Shown here in pieces: positions 1,966 to 56,971 of a DNA stretch of 64,000 nt. Origin of the DNA: a virus (lineage: Duplodnaviria > Caudoviricetes); the IMG/VR virus record IMGVR_UViG_3300027672_001796, one strand, 5' to 3'. Numbering within the stretch: the first letter of the stretch is position 1; every line of letters starts with the position of its first letter. A model generated the notes under the pieces. That model was not told the origin of the DNA and did no database searches. It saw only the letters and a list, made by a program, of their open reading frames with translations. The position numbers and the translations under genes were made by a program.

Positions 1966-1971
1966 TAAATA
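1966..1971 (+). promoter_or_regulatory. T4-late-like promoter TAAATA, ATG 5 nt downstream
   Basis: gcTAAATActgttATG; no SD present. Confidence 0.6.
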
Positions 1972-1976
1972 CTGTT

Positions 1977-4073
1977 ATGAAATTTTTATATAGTGGTTAT
2001 GCAGTATTGATATCTATTGTGTTGCTACTTGCATTGCGAGTAGCAGATCCAACGGCACTACAGAGTGTTAGAGGGCAAACATTTGATGCATATCAACAGT
2101 TAGATGAAATTAAGCAAAGCCAGGATGTTGTACTATTAAACATCGGGGAAAAAAGTTTAGCAGTTAATGGTCAATACCCTTGGCCCAGACAATACTATGC
2201 ACAACTGGTGATAGATGTTGCAGGAGCCGGAGGCGGTGTGCTAGGCTGGACTATTATGTTTCCTGAAGCAGATAGATTCGCCGGAGATGAAATATTTGCT
2301 AATTACTTGATGGAAAATAAAGTTAATGTGCAAGGAGCAAGACGTAATCCTATTAACTTTAATGTATTAAGTCAAGCAACTAGTACAAGAGGCATTAAAA
2401 CATCAGGCCCACATATAGGAACAGGCACAATCGGTCCTGTGCCAGCAAAAAATTATTTACTAAAGTGGCCCAACTTAGTTACAAACATTCCGCTACTAGA
2501 AGCAGTAGCAAACGGCAAAGGCGTAACAGCGTCAGCGCCACAGCCAGATAATCAAACACGAACATACCCATTAGCAATTACAGTTGGCGATAGACTGTAT
2601 CCTAGTTTTGCTATTGAAATGCTAAGGGTAAGTAAAGGTCAAAAAAGTTATATAGTTAAAACTAGCGAATTAGGAATACAAGAAGTTACAGTTAAAGGAT
2701 ACGATCCAATTGTAACACAGTCAGACGGCACAGCATACATTCGCTTTAATAATACATTCGAGGAAATTGAATACTTAGGAGCCGAAACTCTGACCCATCT
2801 TGCAGGCAAAATGGTTATAGTAGGTGTTACAGCAGAAGGTATTGCAAATCCTGTGCCTACACCAAGAGGCAACTTGTATCCACAGCAAATACACGCTCAT
2901 ATGCTACAAAACTTTATAGATAGCAGTAACATTACCAGGAACGAGTTAAGTGCTGTGTACGAGCTTCTGTGTGCGTTACTGGGCATGATATTAATAGGTC
3001 TAGCAATATATAAATCGCACATTTGGGTAGGTTTAGTGACCACAGTTACTATTATAGGCGGAATTGTATATTATAGTATATATTCTTATACTGCAAACTT
3101 AGTATTATTTGATGCTACTTTTCCAGCAATAGCAAGTTTCTTAATATTTACACAGGCAAGTTTTAATAACTTCTGGATACAATTTAAACTAAGAGCTGAG
3201 ATACAAAAACAATTTGCCGGTTACGCCTCTCCTACAGTGGTTCGTATGTTGCAAGAAAACCCAGAACTAATTAAGCAGGGTATGAAGAAGGAAGTAAGTA
3301 TATGCTTCTCAGATTTACGTGGATTTACCCCATTAGGCGAGAGCTTTGGCGATGATGTTAAAGGGTTAACAGAAATAATGAACGGGTATATGGATGCAAT
3401 TACACAACCTATACTAGATGCAAACGGCATGGTGATTAAATATATCGGTGATGCCAGTATGCATATACATAATGCTCCAATGGATGATCCAGACCACCCT
3501 AAGAGTGCGGTGGAAACAGGCATATTAATGCTCAGGGCAGTAGAGAAATTCAATGATAAAATTGTTAAAGAAGGCAGACCACCCATTGGTATGGGTGCTG
3601 GTATTAATACTGGGCTCGGTTATATTGGGGAAATGGGCTCCACTGCCAGGCACAGTTACGACATACTCGGAGATGCAGTTAGTACCGCGGCAAGAATAGA
3701 AAGCAAATGTAAAGAGTACGGATGTTTACTCCTTGTGGGCGGTGATACATATAAACATACTAAGAATAATTTCTTTTATTTAAAAGTAGATGACTTGCAA
3801 GTAAAAGGTAAAAGCGTTGGCATAGAAATATATACTGCATTAGATATTAAGCTAACTAAGTATGTTAAAGGCAAACAACTACATGCACAAATGCATGAAC
3901 ATTATCGCAATCAAGATTTTGATAAAGCAATTAAATTATGTAAGCAATTATCTAAAACGTTTGACGGCAAAATGAAAGGCTACTATACTATGTGGATTGA
4001 ACGCTGTGAATTTCAAAAGACACAAGACTTGCCTAAGGATTGGAACGGAATTATGATAGCCACAGGCAAATAA
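1977..4073 (+). CDS. CHASE2-domain class III adenylate/guanylate cyclase
   Basis: N-terminal TM; CHASE2-like motifs (YPWPR, DxxFA); three TM helices; cyclase motifs FSDLRGFT, KYIGDA, GAGINTG, YDILGDAVSTAARIE. Confidence 0.92.
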   Translation: MKFLYSGYAVLISIVLLLALRVADPTALQSVRGQTFDAYQQLDEIKQSQDVVLLNIGEKSLAVNGQYPWPRQYYAQLVIDVAGAGGGVLGWTIMFPEADRFAGDEIFANYLMENKVNVQGARRNPINFNVLSQATSTRGIKTSGPHIGTGTIGPVPAKNYLLKWPNLVTNIPLLEAVANGKGVTASAPQPDNQTRTYPLAITVGDRLYPSFAIEMLRVSKGQKSYIVKTSELGIQEVTVKGYDPIVTQSDGTAYIRFNNTFEEIEYLGAETLTHLAGKMVIVGVTAEGIANPVPTPRGNLYPQQIHAHMLQNFIDSSNITRNELSAVYELLCALLGMILIGLAIYKSHIWVGLVTTVTIIGGIVYYSIYSYTANLVLFDATFPAIASFLIFTQASFNNFWIQFKLRAEIQKQFAGYASPTVVRMLQENPELIKQGMKKEVSICFSDLRGFTPLGESFGDDVKGLTEIMNGYMDAITQPILDANGMVIKYIGDASMHIHNAPMDDPDHPKSAVETGILMLRAVEKFNDKIVKEGRPPIGMGAGINTGLGYIGEMGSTARHSYDILGDAVSTAARIESKCKEYGCLLLVGGDTYKHTKNNFFYLKVDDLQVKGKSVGIEIYTALDIKLTKYVKGKQLHAQMHEHYRNQDFDKAIKLCKQLSKTFDGKMKGYYTMWIERCEFQKTQDLPKDWNGIMIATGK

Positions 4074-4700
4074 TTATTCGTCCGGAGTCCAGTTTCTAAA
4101 TTCCGTAAATAATTTTGCATACTCAAGTAAGTCTGTGCGTAACGTTTGCAAATGTTTTAATTCAAACGGAATATTTAATCCGGCAGTAATATAAGCAGGA
4201 TGATAAAAATTTAAAATTATATCTACACGTTCTCTGTCTTTAATTATATCTTGTATTACTCTATGATAAAAGTTTGGATCTGTTATTAAATCAGACAGCC
4301 ATTGGTGATGACTACTTGAAGCATTACCCACATACGCCATTTCTCGAACATCAAATGTTAACGCTCTTATAGGATTGATGTTATGTCGATACTTATTCAT
4401 CACCGGTGGATAGTACCATCGTTGATCTCGAGTAGTCTGAGTAGATAGAAACGCTTTATACTCGTTTACTAAACTTTTATACAAACCTTCACTACTAGAT
4501 TGAACAGATACTTTATACTGCTCGATTAAGTTATCAGCTATATTTTGGTGATAACTCTCTAACTCATCGTAAATCTTTAGTAAATGGGGTATTGTCCACG
4601 TACCGTTAAAAAACGATGTAGGTATAGATTTGTGTTTGTGGTATTTGTTCAGCTCGGTGGTCAGTCTAACTACATCAAAATTTATAATATCTTTTGACAT
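4074..4700 (-). CDS. Hypothetical protein (start revised to ATG at 4700)
   Basis: ORF track 4074..4715; late-like TAAGTA-ctagt-ATG on the minus strand. Confidence 0.65.
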   Translation of the reverse strand: MSKDIINFDVVRLTTELNKYHKHKSIPTSFFNGTWTIPHLLKIYDELESYHQNIADNLIEQYKVSVQSSSEGLYKSLVNEYKAFLSTQTTRDQRWYYPPVMNKYRHNINPIRALTFDVREMAYVGNASSSHHQWLSDLITDPNFYHRVIQDIIKDRERVDIILNFYHPAYITAGLNIPFELKHLQTLRTDLLEYAKLFTEFRNWTPDE

Positions 4701-4711
4701 ACTAGTACTTA

Positions 4712-6583: not shown

Positions 6584-7606
6584 CTAGTCTGCCTTCGGTT
6601 TCACTATTTTACTGAGATTAGTTTTAACTGAATCAGTTGTACCATCAGTATTAATTCTTTGGTCATCATTGTTAACAAACGAAGTAAGTATCTTGTTAGC
6701 CGCCGACCATGCCTGTGTCTTATCATCACTAACCCTACGCCAAACACTCAAGTTCTTTAAGAATAATCTGTGCGGTGAAAAGTCTGTTCTTAGGAAGTAA
6801 TCGCCTTCGTTTGCATCTGCCGGGAATGTTGCGCCACTGCCAACTATAACTGCTCCGTTTGGAGGAGTGCCATCGACATTAGGAAGATAAATTCCAGGTG
6901 CGTCACCTTCTACATACAAATGACCACCAGCTACATAGTCTGCATCATACGGTGTTTCAGCCGCCGCCAATGCTTGAACTTTATCTGATATAGCAATTTC
7001 TGTGCTGTAAGTACTTAATATATTTCGTAAATCGTCAGCACTTTCACCAGTGCCAAGTATATCTCTGTACTCTGGACTGTCTGTTATGTTAGTTAGTTTC
7101 ACTCTCCACAAGTGGGGCCACCATCTTGCATCGTAGCCTTCTGCTGGTCTGCCTGCATCACTAACAACAAAATATCTATTAACGGCTTCACCGCCACCAA
7201 GTAATAAGTCATCTCGTAAATGAGGTAGCTCAACAACATCACCTGCCATTAAACGTCTGCCTAATAAACTAGCTAAGGTATTCATATGGAAAGTCATAAA
7301 CAATGAGTCATTGTTAACAAACAGTCCAAACTGTGTTAAGTCAAACTCTGGATCACCGGGAGTATAACTGCCACGTAATTCGTAGATATCAGTATCATAC
7401 TTCCTGTCTCTGTTTTCTAAAAACAGTACATCTTGTATATACAAGTCTCCTGTTCCGGTACTTGCAGTGGTGTCATCAGTGTATGTTCCTATGTATTTGT
7501 GTACATAGACTCCTGTTCCACCCGCGTTGATATTCTCGGCAATAATTCTATCTTGAAAATCATAGTCGTTTGTTTTGTTCTTGTTCCATAAACTTAATCT
7601 AGGCAT
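6584..7606 (-). CDS. gp14: Neck protein, T4 gp14-like (start revised to ATG at 7606)
   Basis: IQDVLFLENRDRKY, DLTQFGLF and GDVVELPHL motifs; adjacent to the gp15-like gene; TAAATA-ctgct-ATG. Confidence 0.7.
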   Translation of the reverse strand: MPRLSLWNKNKTNDYDFQDRIIAENINAGGTGVYVHKYIGTYTDDTTASTGTGDLYIQDVLFLENRDRKYDTDIYELRGSYTPGDPEFDLTQFGLFVNNDSLFMTFHMNTLASLLGRRLMAGDVVELPHLRDDLLLGGGEAVNRYFVVSDAGRPAEGYDARWWPHLWRVKLTNITDSPEYRDILGTGESADDLRNILSTYSTEIAISDKVQALAAAETPYDADYVAGGHLYVEGDAPGIYLPNVDGTPPNGAVIVGSGATFPADANEGDYFLRTDFSPHRLFLKNLSVWRRVSDDKTQAWSAANKILTSFVNNDDQRINTDGTTDSVKTNLSKIVKPKAD

Positions 7607-7611
7607 AGCAG

Positions 7612-7617
7612 TATTTA
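7612..7617 (-). promoter_or_regulatory. Late promoter TAAATA for the gp14-gp15-Nudix operon
   Basis: Minus strand reads tgaTAAATActgctATG. Confidence 0.65.
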
Positions 7618-7633
7618 TCACTTTCTAAAGTTC

Positions 7634-11933: not shown

Positions 11934-11944
11934 TAAATATACAT

Positions 11945-13876
11945 ATGACAGAAGCAACAAAACATGTACCGGATCTAACGTATACAGATTTTACCTTAGA
12001 GTTGTATAAGCAATTCCATAACCAGCCTGGTTTAATTAATCCTTTTAAAAACATCGAAGTAACACATACACCTGTACAGGTTTTATTGTTCACAGACTCA
12101 CCTGGCTGGGGGAACCTGCATCCATTACAATCTATGAGCGAAACTACTATCGACCATCACGGTATAAAACGTGATGGATTAACTCGTACAACAGGTGTAA
12201 ATGATGTAGACAAATGGAAAGACGGTAGGTATGACAGATCAAATTTTAATACAAGTAGAGCAATGGGTGTGTATAAACTAGCACACGAATGCAGAGAGCA
12301 TGGCTTTACAGTTCAAGTTATAGATAACATGTTTCATTTAGACATCGAAACAACAAAACGAGTTATAGACAAGTTTGTAGGTAAAGAAACTTTAATGTTA
12401 GGAGTTAGTAGCACATTTAGAAGTTTTCAATTACTATCACAACGACCATCCATATCAAACTTTGATCCGTTTGAAGGGTTTGACCGAGAAGAAAAAGACG
12501 AATGGATAAAAGACTTAACAGTTACTCGTAAACATTTCTTTTCAACTGGTGCAAAAGGCGACAAGATACTAGGCAAATATATACATGATATAAATCCTAA
12601 TGTAAAATATATTATTGGCGGAGCAAACGTTACTGCACAATATTCGCATCCAGATCCTAACGAAAAAGGTTTAATGGACTATGTGAATTTAGGATTTGGC
12701 GATGTAACAATGCCACAAATATTACAACACCTTAAAGATGGCGGCAAAGCAGACCATTTACCCACAAATAAAAATAAGGTAATGGTAACTGCTGATGGCG
12801 AAAGTAAGTTAGACATAAAACATTCAACCCAAGTGTGGCAATCAGAAGATTTAGTCCAACGTGGCGAAATATTACCCTTGGAAGTTGCTCGAGGATGTAT
12901 ATTTAGATGCAGTTTTTGTTCTTTCCCACTGAACGGCAAAGCTAAAGGCGAAGCAGTAAGAGATTTCAGTTATATCAGAGAAGAACTAATAGAGAATTAC
13001 GAAAAGTATGGTATAGAAGATTATTGGTTAACAGATGACACGTTTAATGATGACCATCAAAAAATGATTGACTGGCATGCAATGACACAGACGCTTCCAT
13101 TTAAATTAAAGTGGAGTTCGTACATTAGATTAGATTTAGTATACATGAATCGTAAACATAATCCACCACAAGCACAGTTAATTGCAGAAAGTGGTTGCAG
13201 ACTGACAAACTTGGGTATTGAAACAACTGATCCTGAATGTGCTAAAGATATTGGCAAAGGATTAAACCCAAATATACAATTTGCATATTTGAGAGAGTTA
13301 GCAGACGGCTATTGGAAGGGCATGACATTTATGAGCGGTATGATAGCCGGTCTACCCAGTGATACTAGGAAAACTCTTAACAAGATGAGTAAGTTTTTAC
13401 TTTCAAAAGACAATCCTTTACATACTATTAACATGAATCCGTTGTATATTAGAAAAACTGATGATGATGCTCACTATTTTACTGAACTTAGTATAAGTGA
13501 ATTTAGTGCTAACTGGAAAGAGCATGGATATGAGTTCACAGAGTTTGATAAAAACGGTGAAGAAATACCAATGGATGCTAGAGGCACGTTAATGAAAAGT
13601 ACGCTGAGTTGGAAAAATAGAAATGGGCTAACATTTTACGACATAGTAAAGTATGCCATGAAGTTTAACAATAGATTAACTTCAGCAAACAAACATGTAT
13701 CAAGTCCATTATTTGTTGCACACGGATTACCGTACCACGATGAAAGATTAGCCGCTCCAGGCGAGCTATACGATGAACAAAACAACTTTTATTTCAATTA
13801 TAAAGAATATTGTAAAGTAAACGATTACTTTTACAAATTATTTACGGAAAATCACACCCACTACTACAGGAAATAG
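11945..13876 (+). CDS. Radical SAM enzyme with N-terminal B12-binding-like domain
   Basis: CxxxCxxC in EVARGCIFRCSFCSFP; DDTFN; GIET; TAAATA-tacat-ATG. Confidence 0.88.
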   Translation: MTEATKHVPDLTYTDFTLELYKQFHNQPGLINPFKNIEVTHTPVQVLLFTDSPGWGNLHPLQSMSETTIDHHGIKRDGLTRTTGVNDVDKWKDGRYDRSNFNTSRAMGVYKLAHECREHGFTVQVIDNMFHLDIETTKRVIDKFVGKETLMLGVSSTFRSFQLLSQRPSISNFDPFEGFDREEKDEWIKDLTVTRKHFFSTGAKGDKILGKYIHDINPNVKYIIGGANVTAQYSHPDPNEKGLMDYVNLGFGDVTMPQILQHLKDGGKADHLPTNKNKVMVTADGESKLDIKHSTQVWQSEDLVQRGEILPLEVARGCIFRCSFCSFPLNGKAKGEAVRDFSYIREELIENYEKYGIEDYWLTDDTFNDDHQKMIDWHAMTQTLPFKLKWSSYIRLDLVYMNRKHNPPQAQLIAESGCRLTNLGIETTDPECAKDIGKGLNPNIQFAYLRELADGYWKGMTFMSGMIAGLPSDTRKTLNKMSKFLLSKDNPLHTINMNPLYIRKTDDDAHYFTELSISEFSANWKEHGYEFTEFDKNGEEIPMDARGTLMKSTLSWKNRNGLTFYDIVKYAMKFNNRLTSANKHVSSPLFVAHGLPYHDERLAAPGELYDEQNNFYFNYKEYCKVNDYFYKLFTENHTHYYRK

Positions 13877-13888
13877 TTAAATACTGGT

Positions 13889-14311
13889 ATGGAACTACCG
13901 CACAGACACCCAATTGCATTAATAGACTCGCATAATATATTAGATGACGAGAATGTTGTTGCAACATATACTATCCAAGCAGACCATCCAGTCCTAGAAG
14001 GACACTTCCCACACATTAAAATATGGCCCGGGGTGTATCTCATCGAAGGTATGAATCAGTGTGCTGGATTACATGCATTACATTTAGCAAAAGACAAAAT
14101 TAGCGAAGTTGGACATAGTGGATATGTTACTTTTGTTACCAGTGTAGATAGAGCAAAATTTAGAACTCCAGTATTCCCCGGAGACCAATTAACACTCACA
14201 GCCAAACTTATTAAACGTAGAAGAGACCACATTTTTTACTCTTGTGAGGTCTGGAAAAACGATAAAGTGTGTGCAAGTGCTACAATCGGACTCACAGCCA
14301 AGCAACTTTAG
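13889..14311 (+). CDS. fabZ: 3-hydroxyacyl-ACP dehydratase (FabZ/FabA hotdog fold)
   Basis: LPHRHP..LID; GHFP..IWPGVYLIE..Q; AKFRTPVFPGDQL. Confidence 0.9.
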   Translation: MELPHRHPIALIDSHNILDDENVVATYTIQADHPVLEGHFPHIKIWPGVYLIEGMNQCAGLHALHLAKDKISEVGHSGYVTFVTSVDRAKFRTPVFPGDQLTLTAKLIKRRRDHIFYSCEVWKNDKVCASATIGLTAKQL

Positions 14312-15788: not shown

Positions 15789-15812
15789 TAGCAAAAAGTG
15801 ATAAATAGTTGT

Positions 15813-16580
15813 ATGGCAACTAGAATCGATCAAATAGGTTACAACGACAGACAAGAAATTATTGAAGAGATATCTTTAAGACTTGCTGACGGCATGGTGG
15901 ACGTTGAGTTAGACAGAGCCCATTACGACATAGCAATTAACAAAGCACTTCAAAAATATCGTCAACTGAGCAGTGGTAGTGTAGAAGAAGCAGTTATTTT
16001 TATACAAACTACAGCAGGTGTAGTAGAATACACCCTTCCAGATGAAGTAATTGACGTCAAACGATTATACAGACGTGGTATAGGTACAAACAGCGGCGGC
16101 GGAACAAACTTTGATCCGTTTGATGTTGCGTTTAATAACATGTACATGCTACAAGCAGGGCAAATAGGCGGACTAGCAGTATTTGATGCTTTTGCACAGT
16201 ATAAAGAAACAATTGGTCGAATCTTTGGTAGCGAATACAACTTTACCTTTAATAGAAATAGTAAGCAACTTACTATATTACGAAATGTTAACCATGCAGA
16301 AGATATTGCAGTAGGTGTAAACAATTTTATACCTGAAAGTGTATTGATTAAAGATGTGTATGCAAGTGACTGGTTAAGTAACTATGCACTAGCACAATCT
16401 AAACTAATGTTAGGTGAAGCAAGAAGTAAGTTTACAGGTGGACTACCAGGCCCAGGTGGAGCAATACAGTTAAATGGTGATGCTCTTAAAAATGAAGCAC
16501 TCTCAGAACTAGAGCAATTAGTAGCCGGCATCCATAATATGGAAGAAGGAAATTCCCCTCTAGGTTTTGTGATGGGATAA
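15813..16580 (+). CDS. gp13: Neck protein, T4 gp13-like
   Basis: LRLADGMVDVELD...LGEARSKF..LPGPGGAIQLNG; TAAATA-gttgt-ATG at 15813. Confidence 0.8.
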   Translation: MATRIDQIGYNDRQEIIEEISLRLADGMVDVELDRAHYDIAINKALQKYRQLSSGSVEEAVIFIQTTAGVVEYTLPDEVIDVKRLYRRGIGTNSGGGTNFDPFDVAFNNMYMLQAGQIGGLAVFDAFAQYKETIGRIFGSEYNFTFNRNSKQLTILRNVNHAEDIAVGVNNFIPESVLIKDVYASDWLSNYALAQSKLMLGEARSKFTGGLPGPGGAIQLNGDALKNEALSELEQLVAGIHNMEEGNSPLGFVMG

Positions 16581-19906: not shown

Positions 19907-19912
19907 TAAATA
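19907..19912 (+). promoter_or_regulatory. Late promoter for the tail sheath gene
   Basis: gaTAAATAttcgtA, then SD aaggag. Confidence 0.7.
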
Positions 19913-19951
19913 TTCGTATAATTAGATTCATATACCAAAGGAGAATATAAT

Positions 19952-22732
19952 ATGGCTACATTAGTATCACCAGGTGTTTCCATTAGTGTATCAGACGAAT
20001 CGTTCTATGCCGCGGCAGGAACAGGATCAGTACCGTTAATAATTATAGCGACTGCACAGGACAAGAAAACTCCTGACGGTTTAAGTACTGCGTCAAATAC
20101 AACTAAGTTAGGAGCTGGAAAATTAAAACTTATTACTAGTCAACGAGAATTGCTACAAACATATGGTAACCCATTGTTTCATAAAAGTGGTTCAGTTGCA
20201 CTAAACGGATATGATCTCAACGAATACGGGTTATTAGCCGCACACAGTTTCTTAGGACTTGCCAACAGAGCATACGTTTTAAGAGCTGACATTGACTTAG
20301 GCGACCTTAAAGCAGACAGCAAGGCACCAACTGGCGCAATCGCAGACGGTACTTACTGGCTTGACACTACAAGTTCTTTATTAGGACTTAGAGAATGGTC
20401 AGGTACAGCTTGGACTAAAAAATCAGTATCAGTTGTAGATTCAACACAAATAGATTCCGGAACAGCAGGACCTAAAAGGTCATTTGGATTAAATGGCGAC
20501 TATGCCGTTGTAGCCAATACAGCCGCTGGCGGAACAGCAACACAAGTAAAATATTACGAAAAATACAGTAATGACTGGTACCAAGTTGGTACTGCAAGTT
20601 GGGTTAGTGCTACTAGTAGCGACTTCCAATTTAAAACTCATTTAGCTGTGCCTACATTACAGTCAGACGGAGTTACATCTCTTTCTACAGGTGATGTTTT
20701 CATTCAAACTACTACACCAAACACTGGTGCAAGTTTAAGTGTTAAGAGCTACAGCTTATCAAAGAAAACTTTCAGTACAGTAAGTACTCCATTATACGCT
20801 ACAACAGACTTGGCATATACCGATATTGGTATGGCTAACGTTGCTGTTGGAAGTCTTGTAGGAATTACAGGCGGAACTGAAGCAGAAGTTGATTTAAAAA
20901 GACATAACGGAACTAAAACTGTTATCGCAACGAGCACAGCTATTTCTAGCTTAGACGTTTCAGGTAACTCTAGCTTTGATATTGTTTATAACGGCACAAC
21001 TGTTGTTGTAACATTAGCTGGTACTATATCAGGAACTCCTGCAACTTCAACAGCCGATGATGCTATTTTTGACATCAACGCGGCATTGGCGGCGGCAAGT
21101 GTTACTGAAGTAATAGCAAGTTCAGGTACAGTAACTAATACAGTTGTACTAACTTCAAGCACTGGTAGAGATATTAAATTGCAAAGCAACCACGCAGACT
21201 TTGGTCCAAGTTCAGTAGGATTTGGCGCACAGGCAGTGGCGGCTAGCATTACATATACTAACTTTGCGGCACTAAGCTATCAAGCAAGTAAAACTACATT
21301 AACTGGTACATTAGCACAAGGTACATATTGGTACAATGCTACTGTTTCTAACACTTCAATTGATATGTTAGAGCATAACGGCTCAACTTGGGTAACTTTA
21401 ACAAAAGACTTCCAAGCTAAAGCAACTGCTCCAACATTACAATCAGACGCAACAGCACTAGTGGCTGGTGATGTATGGTTAGATTCAGACGATACTGAAA
21501 ACTTCCCTTCCCTGAACAAATGGTCAGGAACAGCTTGGGTGGCAGTAGTTGGATCAGATCAAGTAACAGCAGACGGTGTTGTATTTGGTGACTTCAGACA
21601 GTCAACTGCAGGTTCTTTAGATGCTGACGCTCCGGCGGCTAGCAAATACCCAAGTGGAATTTTAGCTTGGAACAAAAGAGCTTCAGCTGGTAACGTAAAA
21701 GAGTACAAACTCAATTACACACCTGCTTCAACAAACATTGGTAATGTTTGGGTTGATGCTTCTGGAAACAAAGCAGACGGTAACATGTTTGGACTAAGAA
21801 AAGCAGTACATAACTTAGTTAAAACTAAAATGCAAGGCGCAATAGCATCTAATGATGACATTAGATCAGAAGTTAATGCGTTTAATATTATAGCGGCTCC
21901 AGGTTTTCCTGAAATGCTAGACGAGATGATTACACTAAGCACAGACAGAAGAAATACTGCCTTTGTAATTGGTGACAGTCCTTTCAGACTTAAAGCAGAC
22001 GCAACTAGTACTACTGCATGGGCAACCAACAGTGGTAAAGCAAGTGAAAACGGCGAAGACGGACTTGTTTCAAGTTCACCTTACGCGGCTATTTACTACC
22101 CTAGTGCATTAACAACTAACCTAGACGGAACTAACGTAGTTGTTCCTTCAAGTCATGTTGCTTTAAGAACTATTGCATATAACGATAACGTTTCTTATCC
22201 TTGGTTTGCACCAGCTGGCTTCCAAAGAGGACTAGTAAATAACGCAACTAGCGTTGGTTATGTAGATCCTACTTCAGGCGAGTATGTTAGTGTAACACTT
22301 AATGAAGGACAAAGAGATACTTTATATCAAAACAAAATTAACCCTATTGCTTCTTTCCCAGGAAGAGGACTTGCAGTATTTGGTCAGAAAACTCTGAACC
22401 CAAGTGCTAGTGCATTAGATAGAGTTAACGTTGCTAGACTTATGGTTTACATCAGAGAAAGACTTGATGATATCGTTAAACCTTTCTTGTTTGAACCGAA
22501 TGATTCAGTTGTAAGAGCAAATGCTAAAAATACTGTTGATAGACTATTATCACAGTTAATCACACAGCGTGGTTTAGTTGACTTTATCACAGTTTGTGAT
22601 AGCTCAAACAATACAGCGGCTAGAATAGACAGAAACGAACTTTACATTGACATTGCAGTACAGCCAATGAAAGCAGTTGAGTTTATTTACATTCCGATTA
22701 GAATCCAGAACACTTTGGGCTCTACAGCGTAA
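19952..22732 (+). CDS. gp18: Contractile tail sheath protein
   Basis: LVSPGVSISV N-terminus; YPWFAPAGFQRG; LYQNKINPI; FGQKTL; LDRVNVARL; FLFEPND. Confidence 0.97.
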   Translation: MATLVSPGVSISVSDESFYAAAGTGSVPLIIIATAQDKKTPDGLSTASNTTKLGAGKLKLITSQRELLQTYGNPLFHKSGSVALNGYDLNEYGLLAAHSFLGLANRAYVLRADIDLGDLKADSKAPTGAIADGTYWLDTTSSLLGLREWSGTAWTKKSVSVVDSTQIDSGTAGPKRSFGLNGDYAVVANTAAGGTATQVKYYEKYSNDWYQVGTASWVSATSSDFQFKTHLAVPTLQSDGVTSLSTGDVFIQTTTPNTGASLSVKSYSLSKKTFSTVSTPLYATTDLAYTDIGMANVAVGSLVGITGGTEAEVDLKRHNGTKTVIATSTAISSLDVSGNSSFDIVYNGTTVVVTLAGTISGTPATSTADDAIFDINAALAAASVTEVIASSGTVTNTVVLTSSTGRDIKLQSNHADFGPSSVGFGAQAVAASITYTNFAALSYQASKTTLTGTLAQGTYWYNATVSNTSIDMLEHNGSTWVTLTKDFQAKATAPTLQSDATALVAGDVWLDSDDTENFPSLNKWSGTAWVAVVGSDQVTADGVVFGDFRQSTAGSLDADAPAASKYPSGILAWNKRASAGNVKEYKLNYTPASTNIGNVWVDASGNKADGNMFGLRKAVHNLVKTKMQGAIASNDDIRSEVNAFNIIAAPGFPEMLDEMITLSTDRRNTAFVIGDSPFRLKADATSTTAWATNSGKASENGEDGLVSSSPYAAIYYPSALTTNLDGTNVVVPSSHVALRTIAYNDNVSYPWFAPAGFQRGLVNNATSVGYVDPTSGEYVSVTLNEGQRDTLYQNKINPIASFPGRGLAVFGQKTLNPSASALDRVNVARLMVYIRERLDDIVKPFLFEPNDSVVRANAKNTVDRLLSQLITQRGLVDFITVCDSSNNTAARIDRNELYIDIAVQPMKAVEFIYIPIRIQNTLGSTA

Positions 22733-22747
22733 GACAGTAGTAATACT

Positions 22748-25568: not shown

Positions 25569-26158
25569 TACAAAGCAAATATCTTAGTGAAGTATTGGAT
25601 TGCAATCACAATACTCCGAAACATTTTTCTCATCAATACGGACAATTCAAGCCATTTTTTATAAAAAACAAACTTTTTTGTTTTATAAATATACCAAAAT
25701 GTGCCTCACAAGACACTGAACATGCTATTGCAGAACATCCAGAAGTTAAACTATTTGATACCCAAGCCGAGGTCTCTACCTTAGAGAGAATTATTTTTCA
25801 CACTGGCACTACCCCTTCGGCAATCAATGGCCGAGACCAATTTTTTACACCTAAGCATATTCAACAAGCAACATGGTTTTGTAATACACGTGATATAAAT
25901 CAAAGATTAGCATCAGGATATGATCCTAGTTGGTTAAATTTTGCACAAAGAACTAATAGACAAATTTTACCATTACATGAATTATTAAAAGTACCCACAG
26001 AGTGGGACGAACATATTCAACCACAAGAATCCTTTTTACAAATTTTTAATGATTCGCATATACAATATACAAAATTAAAAATAGACAGTACAAACCCGCA
26101 ACAATTAAGTAATTCGTTATCAAATTTTTTAGATATAGATATAAAAGTAGGTAAATAG
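25565..26158 (+). CDS. Sulfotransferase family 2-like protein
   Basis: FINIPKCAS (5'-PSB-like); TRDINQRLASGY; DEHIQPQ. Confidence 0.65.
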   Translation: MIQSKYLSEVLDCNHNTPKHFSHQYGQFKPFFIKNKLFCFINIPKCASQDTEHAIAEHPEVKLFDTQAEVSTLERIIFHTGTTPSAINGRDQFFTPKHIQQATWFCNTRDINQRLASGYDPSWLNFAQRTNRQILPLHELLKVPTEWDEHIQPQESFLQIFNDSHIQYTKLKIDSTNPQQLSNSLSNFLDIDIKVGK

Positions 26159-26162
26159 TGTT

Positions 26163-26681: not shown

Positions 26682-26784
26682 GAATAGTCCATTCACCATC
26701 TTTAAAAACTACTACAGTTCCATCGTTCGCCAATGAATATTCGCCGTCAGTTGGATTTTGAGGTTCTTTAACTTTAATGGTCAT
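26671..26784 (-). CDS. 37-aa peptide, not in the ORF track
   Basis: MTIKVKEPQNPTDGEYSLANDGTVVVFKDGEWTIPSQ; exact TATAAATA 5 nt upstream on the minus strand. Confidence 0.55.
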   Translation of the reverse strand: MTIKVKEPQNPTDGEYSLANDGTVVVFKDGEWTIPSQ

Positions 26785-26844
26785 GCTTATATTTATAAAA
26801 AATTGATAAATATGATAAATAAGTGTAACAGGAGTTTATAATAA

Positions 26845-28105: not shown

Positions 28106-28140
28106 TAAACAATCCCTCAAAACTCACATAAATACTTACT

Positions 28141-30512: not shown

Positions 30513-30524
30513 GAGATATATTAA

Positions 30525-37528: not shown

Positions 37529-39196
37529 ATGAACAAGATGTTTACTTTTGCCGCCATAATGCTATTCGCATTCCAGGCCCAGGCAGAAAATATAGAAGAA
37601 GTAGTAGTATATGCCCAAGAGGTTAAAACTACAAAAGCAAGTCCGTTAACAAGTACAACTTTATTCGAGGCAATAATGCCTGATAAGACTTGGATGGCAG
37701 GTGGTTACGGAGCAAGTACAATGTTCAGAGAACGTGGTGCTCAATCTGTACATACCGTAGTATATAAAAATGGTGTTCCAGCAAACAACCCAGGCAGTGG
37801 TTGGTATGATTTTGGACACGACATTACTAGTGGCGAAACAGTAAAAGTTATTAGTGGTGCAAACGGAGTTATGTACGGCTCAGGCAGTATAGCTGGAACA
37901 GTACTAATTCAAGACACTATTGATACTAGTGTAACTGCAAGGCTTGGTTCAAACCACCAGCAGTATATTAGTGTTGCCCCTACAAGTTGGTTCCAGTATT
38001 CAGACTTTAGTGTAGAGCAACAAACAAGGAATGATAATACTGAAACAGACAAGTACGAAAACAAGAGTGCTAAAATTATAGCAGACGCCGGCGACTTTAA
38101 GTTTATAGTTAATGCAGTAGATTATGCTTACGATTATGACAACTGTTATACACCAGAGTTCACTCAATCAAACGATTGTTTACAAGACGGTCAAAAAGTT
38201 ACAGTTAGTGTAAGGAACGAATACTTTACTCTAGGTAGAACAGAAGAGAAAGCAGAATATTTTACTGAAGGTGTAAGTACATATCAAAACGAAAGCAGTA
38301 GAGATTATTTCAGAATAGGCGACACTACAAATTTGTCGACACTACTTGAAGTAACATATGGTGTAGATGGTAGCAAAGAACAATACAATGAACATAGCGA
38401 TGATAACTATGGCGTGTTTCTAAGTGTTGATGCACAATTTATTCTAGACTACAACTTTGGAATTAGGTATGGCAACGATGACCAGAATGCATTGCGTTTT
38501 GGAATAGCTAAAGACCAGTTCTATCTTAACGTAGGTACTAGTTTTAGAAAGCCTAACTTGTACGAGCTTTACGGCGACAGTTACGTTGATGCTAATGATG
38601 AGCTAATGCCAGAAGAAGGCACAGGCTATGAGATTGGTTTTGGTGCTTTAAGTTTATTTAGATATGACTTTGAAGAATCAATTGAGTATACTCCTGGCTT
38701 TAATACTATAATGCCTATTGCAAATGCAATTGACGAAAGCGATGATATTATAGAGATGGTAGAACCAGCTAGTAGTACTGATGTGTGGACCAATGCAAGG
38801 TATTACAATGCAGGCAGTTACTCTACACAGGGTGTTAGATTCTCTAATAACTTTGGACCAGTAAGTGTTATGATAAAGTACAACGATTCTGATAAAGCAA
38901 GAGTGGCACAGTACATTACAGTTCTAACATACAAAAAGATGTGGAAAGAAATTGCATACAAAGTAAGGTATGTAGGATCATTTGACAGAACACCTGGTCT
39001 GTATGATACACTTCCAACTGGACAAGAATACTTAGACGACCTTAAGAAGCTAAACTTTTATGCAGTAAAAAAACTTCCTAATAACACTACTATTTCTTTT
39101 ACAGCATTAAACTTAACAAACGAACAAGCAGAGGTTCTTCCTTATTATAATAATAAAGGCAGAGAATTTAACTTGACAATTCAGTACAACTGGTAG
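37529..39196 (+). CDS. TonB-dependent outer-membrane receptor-like protein
   Basis: Signal peptide (AQA|E); TonB-box-like IEEVVVYA; plug motifs NGVPAN and VISGANGVMYGSGSIAGTV; FRKPNLYELY; PEEG..YEIG; C-terminal aromatic beta-signal (IQYNW). Confidence 0.85.
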   Translation: MNKMFTFAAIMLFAFQAQAENIEEVVVYAQEVKTTKASPLTSTTLFEAIMPDKTWMAGGYGASTMFRERGAQSVHTVVYKNGVPANNPGSGWYDFGHDITSGETVKVISGANGVMYGSGSIAGTVLIQDTIDTSVTARLGSNHQQYISVAPTSWFQYSDFSVEQQTRNDNTETDKYENKSAKIIADAGDFKFIVNAVDYAYDYDNCYTPEFTQSNDCLQDGQKVTVSVRNEYFTLGRTEEKAEYFTEGVSTYQNESSRDYFRIGDTTNLSTLLEVTYGVDGSKEQYNEHSDDNYGVFLSVDAQFILDYNFGIRYGNDDQNALRFGIAKDQFYLNVGTSFRKPNLYELYGDSYVDANDELMPEEGTGYEIGFGALSLFRYDFEESIEYTPGFNTIMPIANAIDESDDIIEMVEPASSTDVWTNARYYNAGSYSTQGVRFSNNFGPVSVMIKYNDSDKARVAQYITVLTYKKMWKEIAYKVRYVGSFDRTPGLYDTLPTGQEYLDDLKKLNFYAVKKLPNNTTISFTALNLTNEQAEVLPYYNNKGREFNLTIQYNW

Positions 39197-39202
39197 TATA
39201 AT
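39173..39202 (+). promoter_or_regulatory. Sigma70-like promoter inside the 3' end of the TBDR gene, ATG 5 nt after the -10
   Basis: TTGACA-18-TATAAT-aactt-ATG. Confidence 0.65.
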
Positions 39203-39207
39203 AACTT

Positions 39208-40665
39208 ATGCCTAAATGTGTTCTAGAGATTCGAGACGAAGTTAACGTAAAGTTTGCAGGATTAGATCCAGCAACAAGACGTAAGATTTCTGATGCGGCA
39301 AAATACTTTTTACCTTACGCCTACCACATGCCAGCTTATAAACTTGGCAGGTGGGATGGGTGTGTTAGGTATTGTGATATTGGCGGTAGAACATATATGA
39401 ACTTATTGGATAGATTACTACCCATAGTTCAAGACTGCGGATATAGTGTTGAAGTAGATGACCAGAGGAGCAAATGGCAGTTTGCATTTGAACCTATAAA
39501 TGAGTTAAGATATGAAAACACTATGTGGCCCAAAGGTCATCCAGCAGAAGGCTCGCCTGTAATACTAAGGGATTATCAAGTAGAAGTTATTAATAACTTT
39601 TTAAAGAATCCACAGAGTTTACAGCAAGTGGCTACAGGAGCCGGTAAGACTCTCATAACAGCCGCCTTAAGCGATATGTGTGAACCTTATGGGCGTAGTA
39701 TAGTTATTGTTCCTAATAAGGACTTAGTAGTACAAACAGAAAGAGACTATAAGAATTTAGGTCTTGATGTGGGAGTACTATTTGGTGACAGGAAACAGTA
39801 TGACAAAACTCATACTATTTGTACATGGCAGAGTTTAGCAGTACTAGAAAAGAAAAGTAAGAAGTTTGAAGCAGACTTTCCAATAGACCAGTTCTTAGAT
39901 GGAGTAGTTTGTATTATGGTAGATGAAGTACACAAGGCAAAAGCCGATGTACTCCAGAAACTATTAGGAGGAGTGTTTGCTAATGTTCCAATCCGTTGGG
40001 GATTAACAGGCACAATACCACAAGATGAACACGAAGCAGTTGGGTGTACTTGTTGCTTAGGTCCAGTTACTGGAAGTTTAAGTAGTAAAGAGTTACAAGA
40101 CAGAGGCGTCCTAGCAGACCTGGATATTAATATTTTTCAAATGCAAGACGGTGTGCAAGGCTTTACAGGTTATGCACAAGAATTAAAATGGCTAGTAACA
40201 GACCCTAAACGTATAGACCACTTGTCTTCAATTATTAATGGATTAGCCGATAACGGAAATACATTAGTGCTAATTGATAGACTTGCAACAGGTGAAATGT
40301 TTAAAGAAAGAAACCCTGAATGGGCATTTATATCAGGTGCAATGAAAGTGAAAGACAGGCAAGAAGAATATGCTGAAGTATCCGATATGGATAATAAAGT
40401 AATTGTAGCAACTTACGGAGTTGCCGCAGTTGGAATTAACATACCTAGAATCTTTAATCTTGTAATGGTAGAACCAGGCAAGAGTTTTGTTAGGGTAATT
40501 CAGAGTATTGGCAGAGGAATCCGTAAAGCAGAAGACAAGGACTATTTACAGGTAATCGATGTAACTAGTAATTTAAAATATAGTAAACGTCATTTGACAA
40601 AAAGGAAAGCCTTTTATAAAGAGCAATCTTTCAAATTTCAAGTTACCAAAGTGGAGTATAAATGA
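39208..40665 (+). CDS. uvsW: UvsW-like SF2 DNA helicase
   Basis: LRDYQ; ATGAGKT; DEVH; GLTGT; GINIP; QSIGRGIR. Confidence 0.93.
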   Translation: MPKCVLEIRDEVNVKFAGLDPATRRKISDAAKYFLPYAYHMPAYKLGRWDGCVRYCDIGGRTYMNLLDRLLPIVQDCGYSVEVDDQRSKWQFAFEPINELRYENTMWPKGHPAEGSPVILRDYQVEVINNFLKNPQSLQQVATGAGKTLITAALSDMCEPYGRSIVIVPNKDLVVQTERDYKNLGLDVGVLFGDRKQYDKTHTICTWQSLAVLEKKSKKFEADFPIDQFLDGVVCIMVDEVHKAKADVLQKLLGGVFANVPIRWGLTGTIPQDEHEAVGCTCCLGPVTGSLSSKELQDRGVLADLDINIFQMQDGVQGFTGYAQELKWLVTDPKRIDHLSSIINGLADNGNTLVLIDRLATGEMFKERNPEWAFISGAMKVKDRQEEYAEVSDMDNKVIVATYGVAAVGINIPRIFNLVMVEPGKSFVRVIQSIGRGIRKAEDKDYLQVIDVTSNLKYSKRHLTKRKAFYKEQSFKFQVTKVEYK

Positions 40666-47565: not shown

Positions 47566-47949
47566 TTATTTAAGTTTTGGGTCGATACTTCTAACTAACT
47601 GAATACTTCTTCTTTTGATCCGCTTTTTAAGTATGTTTTGCATACTAGTTACAGGCCCAAACAATATTTCAGTTTCTTTTAGAATAAACGTACTAACACA
47701 GTGCCTGAATTCTTGCATTTCATGGAATAAAAATACATCAATTGGTAACATCCTGTTAGATTCCCACCACCATAAGTCTCCACAATCCATCATGATTTTC
47801 TTTTCTTCACTGTTACGACATTTGTCAATATCGTAAAAACTTATAATCTGGTTGTCCTTGTTTTGCACAATGCCGACATAGTCTTTGCCATTGTACGCCA
47901 TTCCAGTTAAAAAAGGGAATTTCTCTTGTAGGTTAGTCTCATTAGTCAT
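47566..47949 (-). CDS. Hypothetical protein on the opposite strand
   Basis: Exact TATAAATA upstream; CGDLWWWESNRMLPI. Confidence 0.7.
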   Translation of the reverse strand: MTNETNLQEKFPFLTGMAYNGKDYVGIVQNKDNQIISFYDIDKCRNSEEKKIMMDCGDLWWWESNRMLPIDVFLFHEMQEFRHCVSTFILKETEILFGPVTSMQNILKKRIKRRSIQLVRSIDPKLK

Positions 47950-48003
47950 CAAAAGTATTTATAGTACAAATGGATAAATACATAACAAACATGGAATTAA
48001 ATA

Positions 48004-48831: not shown

Positions 48832-48860
48832 TTGACTTCTTCGCATTAAGCTGTTATAAT
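48832..48860 (+). promoter_or_regulatory. Sigma70-like promoter with extended -10
   Basis: TTGACT-17-TATAAT with TG at the -15/-14 positions; ATG 8 nt later with no SD. Confidence 0.7.
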
Positions 48861-48868
48861 AACTGAAT

Positions 48869-49846
48869 ATGCATCATCATGAACTAGTAGACCAAGTACA
48901 TCGATTACTTATGGATAATTTGCCCTTAAACTCTGGCAAAACTCCTAGTGGTTGGATAACGTTTGATTGTCCTCTATGTAGCGACAAGAGAAAACGTGCA
49001 GGAGTAATTCAGAGTAATGCTAAAATAAGCTATCACTGTTTTAACTGTAGTTTTACAACTGGCTGGGCACCTAGTCCAAAGTTAGGTCATAAGTACAGGC
49101 AACTATGTGAGACATTAGGTGTGTCTAACAAGGATATACATAAAGTTGTTTTAGACTTAATGAAGCATTCCGAAGAATTAGAGATAGAAGACAGCACTGA
49201 GTATGTTTATACAGCGGCTAGTTTCGTAACACATCAATTACCAGAAGAAACTACACTAGTAGAACACATGGAAGATGGACACCCAATTAAAGAATATGCA
49301 CAACAACGTGGATTGCTAGGCAATTTCCCTTTGATGCACATTAACAACAGTCTATACAAAAAACGTTTAGTTGTTCCGTTTCTATATAACAACGAATTAG
49401 TAGGATGGACCGGCAGACACATTAGCCCACCTAACAAAGAAACTGCAAAGTACCTATTAAATGTACAACCAGGCTATGTGTTTAACATAGACAGGTATGT
49501 AGACAGTGATAGAGACTTTGTTATAGTAGTAGAAGGCGTATTTGATGCAATACTTATAGATGGCATAAGTGTTTTGGGTAATAGTGTAACACCTGAACAA
49601 GCACATTTGATTTCTAAACTTAATAAACGTGTTATACTATGTCCTGATAGAGATAGTGCAGGTAAAGACTTAATAGCAACAGCAGTAGAACTAGGATGGG
49701 AAGTAAGTTTTCCTAAATGGTCGTCTGAATGCAAAGATGTTGCCGATGCAGTAAACAAATATGGCAGGTTATTAACAATGAAGAGCATTACAGAAAATGC
49801 AGTTAGTAACGAACTTAAAATACAAGTTCAGGCAAAAATGCTATGA
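48869..49846 (+). CDS. gp61: DNA primase (Zn ribbon + TOPRIM, gp61-like)
   Basis: CPLC...HCFNC; VVEGVFDA; CPDRDSAG; KDVAD. Confidence 0.88.
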   Translation: MHHHELVDQVHRLLMDNLPLNSGKTPSGWITFDCPLCSDKRKRAGVIQSNAKISYHCFNCSFTTGWAPSPKLGHKYRQLCETLGVSNKDIHKVVLDLMKHSEELEIEDSTEYVYTAASFVTHQLPEETTLVEHMEDGHPIKEYAQQRGLLGNFPLMHINNSLYKKRLVVPFLYNNELVGWTGRHISPPNKETAKYLLNVQPGYVFNIDRYVDSDRDFVIVVEGVFDAILIDGISVLGNSVTPEQAHLISKLNKRVILCPDRDSAGKDLIATAVELGWEVSFPKWSSECKDVADAVNKYGRLLTMKSITENAVSNELKIQVQAKML

Positions 49847-52668: not shown

Positions 52669-52700
52669 ATGATAAATATGACTATAACGAGAAATAATTT

Positions 52701-52949
52701 ATGAAAAAGTCAAGAAGTATATTAGAAGAATTGAACTCTATTAGCACAGATAGAAACAAGCACCACGTTTTGGAAAACAGAGTGGAGCACCTAGTTTCTA
52801 GTGCGGCTAACATTAAAGAGATATTATATTCTTTATACGAGGAAGATGTTGCATTGGATTTAGAACGTAGACTCATTAACAGCATTAAAAGTGGCGATCC
52901 TAAAAAATTCTCTCGAGGCATAAACAAAGCCACAAAAGAATCTAAATAA
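52701..52949 (+). CDS. Small late protein (putative core protein)
   Basis: Late promoter at 52673-52678; N-terminus MKKSRSILEE. Confidence 0.65.
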   Translation: MKKSRSILEELNSISTDRNKHHVLENRVEHLVSSAANIKEILYSLYEEDVALDLERRLINSIKSGDPKKFSRGINKATKESK

Positions 52950-55660: not shown

Positions 55661-56423
55661 TTTAGACTTAAAGTTAGTTAATAAAGAGTTATGTGAAAGC
55701 AAGTTATATAGATCAACGTCTGGCTTTAAAAGTCTGACAGGTAGAGATATTGCAGATTTATTTTATTTGCAAACACTAAGTCTTATAATGATGTATCAAG
55801 ATAACAAGCAACAGGACTATGCGTTAGTGTATGCAAGAAAAACATGCCAGTATGGACCCTATGCAGTTTTTAGAACAGCGGCAACTGACTTGTACATGTT
55901 AGGGTTTGCTATTAACAATCCTGACTACCAAAGTTTAAAGTTTAAAAGTAAAGATGTAAGTTTTTTAAATTCTTTACAATTCCAAAACAGAAAGCATTAT
56001 GCTTTTATGCAACGTGTACAACGACAGGGTCTTAGTAAAAGTGATATTACAACAACTCTGTTTAGGTTCGAATCACAATTACAAATTAAAAATCCAATAC
56101 TTAAACAGTTAAGACGATTAATTATAAGTTGGCCCAGTCTAAAATTTGCTCAACGACAGTTAGTTGTTAGTAAAATAATCCAGTTAATGAGATTAAAAGG
56201 AAGAGGCAGTGAGATATTTACTCAAGTAAGTTCAATGAGCTCTAGAAAGGAACTTAAACCTATACCAAAAACATCGACTCTTAAACGTGCCGCTGGTACG
56301 GCAGTTGGTGCCTATGCAGGAAGTAAAATCTTGCCAAGAGTATCAAGTAAAATATCATCTGTTTCAGGTGCCGGCATTGGCGCAATCGCAGGGTATTGGG
56401 CAAGTGGACGAAAAAAGGCATAA
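55632..56423 (+). CDS. Hypothetical protein with C-terminal glycine zippers (GTG at 55650 is an alternative start)
   Basis: ELCE|S site; AAGTAVGAYAG and GAGIGAIAGYW. Confidence 0.7.
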   Translation: MDQVNLVENNLDLKLVNKELCESKLYRSTSGFKSLTGRDIADLFYLQTLSLIMMYQDNKQQDYALVYARKTCQYGPYAVFRTAATDLYMLGFAINNPDYQSLKFKSKDVSFLNSLQFQNRKHYAFMQRVQRQGLSKSDITTTLFRFESQLQIKNPILKQLRRLIISWPSLKFAQRQLVVSKIIQLMRLKGRGSEIFTQVSSMSSRKELKPIPKTSTLKRAAGTAVGAYAGSKILPRVSSKISSVSGAGIGAIAGYWASGRKKA

Positions 56424-56437
56424 GGATAAATAGTTGT

Positions 56438-56971
56438 ATGAAAATAAGTGAAATAGAAGCACCGGGCAAAACCTTAGACCAATTACATAAAGAATGGGTA
56501 GTAGCTTATAGTCCGGACGGTGCCACTCAAGCGAGGGTATGGTCACAGGCAATTAAAGCCCAGGCGGCTGGTATGGAACCAGCAAGAGCACATAATTCTG
56601 CATTGTCGGCTGTTAATAGTAGTAATGATCGCAGACAAGATAGGGCGTTAAACCAACGACAAGCTGATAGAAAAGACAAGCCGTTTGTTGGCGTACCAAT
56701 GAAGCAAAAAGGAACTCCACCCACTGCATCAGATTCACCCAAAACTAGAGGCGGACAAATAGGTAACCAAAATGCTTATAGAGGCGGCCCAAAAGCAAAA
56801 GCTGGTCCAGGCAAGAACGCGATTGACGTAATGAAAGACAAATGGGACGATTTCAACAAAGTTGATGGTTTAGCAGGCAAATCTGCCGCTAAAGGAAGTA
56901 TGATATCAAAATATCTCAATAAAGCCGCCGGCGAGATAGTAGCAATGGGTGATAGAGCCCGAAGGAAGTAA
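56438..56971 (+). CDS. Basic putative internal protein
   Basis: TAAATA-gttgt-ATG; MKISEIE start; GGQIGNQNA motif. Confidence 0.7.
   Translation: MKISEIEAPGKTLDQLHKEWVVAYSPDGATQARVWSQAIKAQAAGMEPARAHNSALSAVNSSNDRRQDRALNQRQADRKDKPFVGVPMKQKGTPPTASDSPKTRGGQIGNQNAYRGGPKAKAGPGKNAIDVMKDKWDDFNKVDGLAGKSAAKGSMISKYLNKAAGEIVAMGDRARRK

Follow-up and report, generated by a model that had tools for sequence, protein, structure and literature searches.

Where do the late transcripts of a marine jumbo phage begin, and can they begin on the start codon itself? The question is raised by a window of 64 kb (the whole stretch of DNA analysed here, IMG/VR record IMGVR_UViG_3300027672_001796) from an uncultured marine jumbo phage, in which the hexamer TAAATA lies exactly five nucleotides (nt) ahead of the ATG of several genes. 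We write this layout as N5 (N6 for six nt, and so on). The arrangement probably reflects a T4-type late promoter that sets the transcription start (+1) on the A of the ATG, the resulting messages being leaderless, as judged from the sequence. The window has 37.5% G+C. Its terminase large subunit (TerL) shares 57% identity with the one from Pseudomonas phage PA5oct and 44–53% with those of Atu_ph07 and Rak2-like phages, and its conserved genes align with PA5oct at ~66% nucleotide identity. The same DNA recurs in marine metagenomes of several studies and in marine RNA libraries. Genome-wide counts were taken from the relative G002 (339,794 bp, 91% complete), which is syntenic with the window over positions 2,076–58,699 at 65–75% nucleotide identity.

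The N5 spacing is strongly over-represented in the window. TAAATA occurs 97 times, and TAAATA-N5-ATG nine times against 1.96 ± 1.48 expected; none of 100 dinucleotide shuffles reached nine. Seven of the nine matches open ORFs (open reading frames) of 140–698 amino acids (aa), at the first ATG of the ORF, and the ninth match, at 43472, does not belong to this class of gene starts. Among the 25 boxes lying 0–40 nt ahead of an ORF-opening ATG, seven fall in the N5 bin (binomial p = 1.7e-6). An earlier reading of the letters, made without database searches (the sequence-only reading), had listed TAAATA or TAAGTA at N5 before the ATGs at 1977, 11945, 13889, 15813, 26163 and 56438 on the plus strand and at 7606, 4700 and 26784 on the minus strand, and N6 spacing at 28141 (+) and 47949 (−). 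All these sites are present as described, with TAAGTA at 4700 (−) and TAAATA at the others (Table 1). The genes with N5 or N6 encode an adenylate/guanylate cyclase, a radical SAM protein, a FabZ-like dehydratase, a head-tail adaptor, TerL (N6), a virion structural protein and four proteins without assigned function. At 1977, 11945, 13889, 26163 and 28141 there is no alternative in-frame start codon between the upstream stop and the ATG, which is thus the secure start.

The enrichment of the N5 spacing extends beyond the window, both genome-wide and clade-wide. In G002, the 76 boxes within 40 nt of an ORF-opening ATG include 16 N5 and seven N6 sites (p = 4e-11). When every hexamer was ranked at every fixed offset before the ORF-opening ATGs of this genome, TAAATA at −11 came first, with the Shine-Dalgarno (SD) hexamer AGGAGA behind. 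Distinct contexts from ~160 related contigs gave 75 N5 and 18 N6, with 0–18 in each other bin (p = 6e-55) and 1–9 in each of the N4 and N7–N9 bins. Composition-matched control hexamers showed no peak in these contigs or in G002. With more loci added, the distinct contexts rose to 165 N5 and 31 N6, and the N5/N6 layout has members in 52 gene families. Matches to TAAATA-N5-ATG also outnumbered those to a reversed-pattern control in each relative: 25 against 7 in G002, 12 against 0 in G004, 14 against 1 in G006, and 8 against 0 in G005.

Individual families keep this register across the clade. The layout is N5 in 20 of the 22 distinct contexts of the cyclase (1977), and the cyclase of the SAR11 phage HTVC008M has the same layout. 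The family of the 4700 (−) gene, whose box adjoins the TGA with which the upstream gene ends, is N5 in 32 distinct contexts and differs in a single one. The radical SAM family (11945) has 18 N5 and two N6 contexts against nine others, and the FabZ family (13889) six N5 and four N6 against ten. The adaptor (15813) has 18 N5 contexts against two, both leadered with AAGGA, and the family of 26163 has 21 N5 contexts, its remaining members being SD-led. Orthologues in the last two families thus alternate between box-N5-ATG and SD-led starts. Relatives whose TerL is 76–97% identical (and one at 54%) retain the TerL box at N5 or N6 amid unalignable flanks; in a clade at 67% identity the box is gone and an AGGA site is in place. 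Of 202 leaderless contexts, 3 contain an SD-like sequence, versus 80 of 216 other orthologue contexts, and protein N-termini are conserved from the box-adjacent ATG across relatives.

The gene for a 427-aa virion protein shows both states within one family. The window has box-caagt-AGGAG-leader-ATG, and a relative (L034) has box-caagt-ATG with the same protein N-terminus; several contigs of more distant clades are also N5. The predicted +1 of the window gene is the first A of AGGAG, so its RNA would open with the SD sequence itself. Judging from such alignments, evolution appears to handle the position between box and ATG as a joint. The loci compared are window 30500–30527, L034:2300-2327, where the leader is absent exactly at the joint, and L036:2200-2234. 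In other relatives, a second TAAATA lies inside the leader.

The box has the properties of a T4-type late promoter. A single grammar, GATAAATA-N3-K-Y-A, describes N5 and leadered copies alike. Ahead of the box, N5 sites carry G at −2 in 58% and A at −1 in 78% of cases; behind it come K at position 4 and T or C at position 5 (94%). The upstream GA recurs in leadered copies, as does Y at position 5, and position 6 is A in 58% of them vs 33% of background boxes. The whole grammar is absent from TAAATA copies far from gene starts. The profile of 165 N5 and 206 leadered contexts gives GATAAATA, near-background composition from −14 to −3 and no conserved −35 element, with the exception of the promoter at 7606, which has a conserved TTGTCA. 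Boxes lie before the sheath, tube, adaptor, terminase and virion structural protein genes, and the leadered sheath, tube and virion protein genes each carry a strong AGGAG. The T4 late promoter, TATAAATA, occupies −13 to −6 (PMC1524935). This geometry therefore predicts +1 at the A six bases after the box, i.e., at the A of the ATG in N5 sites. The N4-T-A noted earlier after TAAATA at eight leadered sites was likewise found at each of them, with the +1 positions given in Table 1.

A candidate reader of the box is encoded in the clade. We detected a gp55-like sigma factor in G002 (phrog_12791, E = 2e-94; phrog_234, E = 7e-24) and in G005 (phrog_12791, E = 2e-85), and such genes occur in at least 595 IMG/VR contigs. 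The sigma factor of the clade (G002, G005) has ~272–293 aa, versus 185 aa in T4. Late activation in the clade may involve different partners.

The layout recurs in a cultured phage of another family. In HTVC008M, TAAATA-N5-ATG occurs 14 times versus four for the reversed control. TAAATA at −11 again ranks first among the hexamers, and N5 is the spacing of 12 of the 34 boxes (p = 1.5e-11). RefSeq places the starts of the adenylate cyclase, CsgF, 2OG oxygenase, tape measure, DNA end protector, head closure protein, baseplate tail tube cap and wedge subunit genes at such N5 sites. We then grouped pelagimyophage-like contigs in four tiers (loci L270-L277, L279 and L281-L338), from 95% down to 41% identity to the query, the HTVC008M baseplate tail tube cap protein. 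The boxes near gene starts were at N5 in 13 of 15, 12 of 18, 27 of 50 (plus ten at N6) and 13 of 16 cases. There was no N5 enrichment relative to the reversed control in T4 (10 against 5), PA5oct (15 against 12), Syn9 (3 against 3), Atu_ph07 (15 against 9) or SP27 (6 against 11). A search of the phage collection for cultured pelagimyophages or methylophages returned only HTVC008M among the close matches.

The starts themselves look like transcription starts. A pyrimidine stands immediately before the ATG in 95% of N5 and 91% of N6 genes, compared with 52% of SD-led ones; a pyrimidine at −1 and A at +1 form the usual initiator pair. GGAG, GAGG or AGGA occurs within 20 nt in only 6 of 203 N5 and 0 of 33 N6 contexts, the box filling −11 to −6. 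N5 contexts use ATG 250 times and GTG or TTG three times, versus 334 and 21 for SD-led genes (Fisher p = 0.003). Over the first 40 nt, folding energy averages −2.46 kcal/mol in the N5 class, −3.44 in SD-led genes (p = 0.016) and −4.68 at internal ATGs (p = 2e-6), a contrast that is partly confounded by lower G+C. The genes at 7606 (−) and 47949 (−) head divergent units with no co-oriented gene upstream. Hence, translational coupling to an upstream gene cannot explain either of them.

Marine RNA libraries bear on the leadered sites. Behind the predicted +1 at 19918, assembled contigs start at 19932 and 19936, and behind that at 26827 one starts at 26831, i.e., 4–18 nt after the predicted start, which is a weak hint. 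None of the contigs listed begins at a leaderless ATG, and over the adaptor gene the contig starts are 15844 and 15859. In four marine libraries, contigs lie mainly over the sheath, tube and virion genes (19884–23885) and the radical SAM region (11880–13880) is uncovered. This coverage indicates presence only, not expression level, and is neither for nor against leaderless messages.

The following mechanism would account for these observations. (G)ATAAATA-N3-K-Y-A would be the late promoter of the lineage, read by the host RNA polymerase with the phage gp55-like sigma and starting at the A six bases past the box. At the leaderless half of the late promoters of the window (10 of ~20), this A would be that of the start codon, giving an mRNA that begins 5'-AUG. 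Such messages would have neither leader nor SD sequence, and the ribosome would recognise the 5'-terminal AUG by the leaderless route. At the remaining late promoters, +1 would open a short leader and drive the most abundant virion genes. As a likely though hypothetical consequence, the arrangement would also gate translation. On read-through RNA from upstream the ATG would be internal and free of SD, and these genes, including the auxiliary cyclase, radical SAM and FabZ genes, would be efficiently synthesised only upon firing of the late promoter.

Leaderless messages for the neck/adaptor, terminase, cyclase, radical SAM and FabZ genes, as proposed by the sequence-only reading, are strongly supported by the spacing, the initiator, the T4 geometry, the sigma factor, the alternation among orthologues and the use of ATG. 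Its wider statements fared less well. A "largely leaderless" late programme is overstated for the window, where ~10 late promoters are leaderless and ~10 leadered, and where the sheath, tube and virion genes keep a strong AGGAG; in a full-length relative roughly a third would be leaderless. The strong AGGAG of late structural genes also argues against the suggested late impairment of SD-dependent initiation. Finally, the anti-SD C-rich RNA invoked there is described as complementary to the ribosome-binding site of a single gene, and not to SD sites generally.

Several observations weigh against transcription starting on the ATG. The gp55-like sigma that was to be sought in the rest of the genome is seen in the relatives G002 and G005 and is absent from the 64-kb window. 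Searches with phrog_223 and a gp33-like query found no gp33 or gp45-type clamp in G002 or G005. The gp33-like query does recover the gene of HTVC008M, so this search works, while the search for gp45-type clamps had no match in any genome and is weak evidence of absence. The late machinery may thus differ from that of T4, and the start-site rule could differ too. The RNA data are assembled contigs, which cannot fix a transcription start. The family of 7606 is mostly N7, with few N5, and at N6 sites transcription would have to begin a base later or leave a leader of 1 nt. The gaps behind co-oriented genes are only 4–35 nt at 1977, 4700, 11945, 13889, 15813, 26163 and 56438; read-through transcripts therefore exist, and some internal SD-independent initiation may occur.

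These short gaps lead to the alternative that survives best, which we nevertheless regard as unlikely. The boxes would be real late promoters squeezed between genes, the adjacent genes being read mainly from polycistronic read-through mRNA by SD-independent internal initiation at A/U-rich, unstructured starts, and the transcripts started at the box would serve genes further downstream. The seven co-oriented gaps, the A-rich and weakly structured start regions, and a bS21 homologue in relatives that could alter initiation are all compatible with it. Yet squeezing permits any short spacing, and the counts are 75 at N5, 18 at N6 and 1–9 at each of N4 and N7–N9. A start a few bases off would drop the first gene from its own transcript, so this alternative gives no reason for the register to be kept. 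Nor does it suit the divergent genes at 7606 and 47949, which have no co-oriented upstream gene, or the pyrimidine at −1 and the near-exclusive use of ATG, which fit a start site on the ATG.

The box also sits where an SD sequence would lie. UAAAUA at −11 to −6 could then be a translation signal in the RNA that replaces the SD sequence, and not a promoter at these sites, recognised by a phage protein or by a phage-modified ribosome, e.g., one carrying a phage bS21. Homologues of bS21 are encoded in G002, G003, G006 and HTVC008M, and S21 is core to pelagimyophages (PMC7029224). We consider this reading improbable. The same box and grammar occur 14–34 nt upstream of genes with their own AGGAG, where they have no ribosome-site role; RNA-library contigs start just past the box; and the box matches the T4 late promoter in a lineage with a gp55-like sigma. 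PA5oct, moreover, has bS21 yet no N5 enrichment, and we know of no complementarity between UAAAUA and the 3' tail of 16S rRNA. Given PA5oct, a phage bS21 was also rejected as a clean marker of the leaderless layout. The homologue of G002 (145683–146087, minus strand, equal to L174:5683-6087) has ~132 aa, an N-terminal extension and an SD-led TTG start; others lie at G003:93398-93550, G006:542-697, HTVC008M 91237–91392 and PA5oct 170985–171143. Five relatives were searched for an IF3 C-terminal domain, with no match. An artefact of composition or annotation, with AT-rich hexamers near false ATG starts, might be imagined in an A-rich genome of 37% G+C with 97 copies of TAAATA, and is refuted by the shuffles, the flat control hexamers, the five window sites that lack an alternative start, the conserved N-termini and the RefSeq starts of HTVC008M.

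Beyond a leaderless late promoter as such, the fusion of promoter and start codon might be a deliberate two-level timing switch combined with an adaptation to oligotrophic hosts, which would imply a SAR11-like host for the jumbo phage. We put this joint reading forward only tentatively. A gene would be translatable only as the 5' end of an RNA made from the late promoter, and early or middle read-through would be silent; the layout would suit the translation apparatus of streamlined oligotrophic hosts. The host-adaptation reading follows from its presence in SAR11 phages and its absence from T4, Syn9, PA5oct, SP27 and Atu_ph07. The occurrence of the trait in two separate T4-superfamily lineages, and its absence from the tested relatives of each, points to a host- or habitat-linked adaptation; for a SAR11-like host of the jumbo phage, this is a hint and no more. 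We searched genome contigs with FabZ for a host genome and the only match was a Ferrovaceae metagenome-assembled genome (33% identical). The radical SAM protein had no tblastn match in the phage collection.

The promoters share with those of T4 an A/T-rich −10-type box ending in TAAATA, the lack of a conserved −35 element, a position before virion genes, a predicted start six bases after the box and, as seen in relatives, a gp55-family sigma in the lineage. In T4, late promoters are recognised by gp55 together with gp33 and the sliding clamp gp45. The differences lie in the consensus (GATAAATA here, TATAAATA in T4), in the longer sigma, in the lack of a detected gp33 or gp45 homologue in relatives, and in the ATG at +1, which in T4 itself is not enriched. 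In the Rak2-like jumbo phages CBB and GAP32, the late motif is ATAAATA and a gp55-like sigma is encoded; gp33 and gp45 were likewise not found there (PMC5259590). They belong to the same wider group (TerL 44–58% identical) and carry the motif before structural genes. However, the published motif is merely upstream, without fixed spacing to the ATG, and PA5oct, SP27 and Atu_ph07 lack the N5 enrichment.

Leaderless messages are also known, e.g., lambda cI from PRM, and GeneMarkS-2 models leaderless genes by a −10 box set a short, constant distance ahead of the start codon. They account for about a quarter of mycobacterial genes (PMC4633059). Like these, the sites described here have a −10 element in single-base register with the ATG, no SD sequence, a strict preference for ATG and an unstructured 5' end. 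Unlike them, they would depend on a phage-specific late promoter instead of the host housekeeping −10, and would unite structural with auxiliary genes of a lytic T4-superfamily phage in a temporal regulon. HTVC008M and the pelagimyophages share the TAAATA-N5-ATG peak and the curli, cyclase, radical SAM and bS21 genes. HTVC008M, however, is of a different family (Kyanoviridae-like, ~147 kb), in contrast to the 340-kb PA5oct-related clade studied here, and nearly all pelagimyophage boxes near gene starts are at N5, compared with about half here.

Our search of the literature on T4-like, jumbo, cyano- and pelagiphages for leaderless late transcripts returned only citations of gene finders and unrelated statements. 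T4 late transcription and leaderless initiation are each known; in the literature searched, we found no description of their systematic fusion into a late regulon of abundant marine phages. If true, this would be the first regulon-scale use of leaderless mRNAs under a phage-specific late sigma. A survey of pelagimyophages reported that late promoters were not detectable in the group (PMC7029224), possibly because they lie on the start codons. A 14-base rule would settle start codons and late-gene calls in very abundant phages of the ocean, and would assign auxiliary genes (adenylate cyclase, curli, radical SAM and FabZ) to the late class. The layout also gives a hint of which hosts an uncultured 340-kb phage may infect. 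A cultured test system exists in HTVC008M on Pelagibacter ubique HTCC1062.

Table 1. Boxes and promoters ahead of gene starts in the window, with the corresponding starts of HTVC008M. Start sites (+1) are predictions.
Feature	Coordinates	Strand	Remarks
CHASE2-adenylate/guanylate cyclase gene, 1977–4073	1966..1979 (box)	+	TAAATA-N5-ATG; +1 predicted on A of ATG
208-aa gene, function unassigned, 4700 down to 4074	4698..4711	−	TAAGTA-N5-ATG
Virion structural protein gene, 7606 down to 6584	7604..7617	−	TAAATA-N5-ATG; heads minus-strand block
643-aa radical SAM gene, 11945–13876	11934..11947	+	TAAATA-N5-ATG
FabZ/FabA-like dehydratase gene, 13889–14311	13878..13891	+	TAAATA-N5-ATG
Head-tail adaptor (Ad2-like) gene, 15813–16580	15800..15815	+	GATAAATA-N5-ATG
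172-aa gene, 26163–26681, phrog_16202	26152..26165	+	TAAATA-N5-ATG
37-aa ORF, 26671–26784	26782..26795 (box)	−	TAAATA-N5-ATG; between two plus-strand genes
Terminase large subunit gene, 28141–29736	28129..28143	+	TAAATA-N6-ATG
127-aa gene, 47949 down to 47566, phrog_11637	47947..47961	−	TAAATA-N6-ATG; divergent from gene starting 48004
177-aa gene, 56438–56971	56425..56440	+	GATAAATA-N5-ATG
Tail sheath gene, ATG 19952	19907..19954	+	TAAATA; +1 predicted 19918; AGGAG
Virion protein gene, ATG 26845	26816..26847	+	Leadered; +1 predicted 26827; AGGAG
427-aa virion protein gene, ATG 30525	30500..30527	+	+1 predicted 30511, first A of AGGAG; 14-nt leader
TAAATA-N4-TA, 130 nt ahead of single-stranded DNA-binding protein gene (31977)	31836..31847	+	+1 predicted 31847; assignment uncertain
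82-aa virion protein gene, ATG 52701	52673..52703	+	Leadered; +1 predicted 52684
Gene with ATG 57058	57019..57060	+	Leadered; +1 predicted 57030; AGGAG
Gene starting 57553 or 57607 (57607 with AGGAG)	57517..57528	+	Leadered; +1 predicted 57528
Gene with ATG 58091	58057..58093	+	Leadered; +1 predicted 58070; AGGAG
uvsW-like helicase gene, 39208	39173..39210	+	Sigma70-type TTGACA-N18-TATAAT-N5-ATG
Primase gene, 48869	48832..48871	+	Sigma70-type TTGACT-N17-TATAAT-N8-ATG; leader at most ~3 nt
HTVC008M (NC_020484), box-N5 ATGs	6280, 7562, 11972, 16007 (−), 18916 (−), 18943, 19456, 31132		

Predicted leaders at the leadered late promoters are 14–34 nt long and often open straight with AGGAG. The sigma70-type promoters previously described as abutting the ATG of the uvsW-like helicase (39208, N5) and primase (48869, N8) genes are indeed there, and sigma70-type cases of this kind in the phage are few. 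The uvsW-like promoter is at N5 in three further distinct lineages, at N7 in L037, and has a 32-nt leader in G002. TATAAT at N5–N7 occurs six times in G002 against ~2 expected. Since this enrichment is weak, we rejected sigma70-type leaderless promoters as a general programme, conserved though the uvsW case is.

Two N5 matches stand somewhat apart. The 26784 (−) site has C, not T, at −1 and is a doubtful member of the leaderless class; its ORF may encode a small late protein or be a chance match. The 7606 (−) site (window 7607–7650, minus strand; loci L082-L161) has a conserved −35-like TTGTCA, a 17-nt spacer and TG-n-TAAATA, i.e., an extended −10 TG. By its sequence it looks like a full sigma70-type promoter in which the late box is reused as the −10 element, and it may also be readable by a host sigma.

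The 14-mer GATAAATAGTTGTA is present three times in the window (15800–15813, 56425–56438 and 58057–58070), where none is expected. Two copies (15800 and 56425) run into an ATG and one (58057) into a leader, which suggests a promoter cassette spread through copying or recombination.

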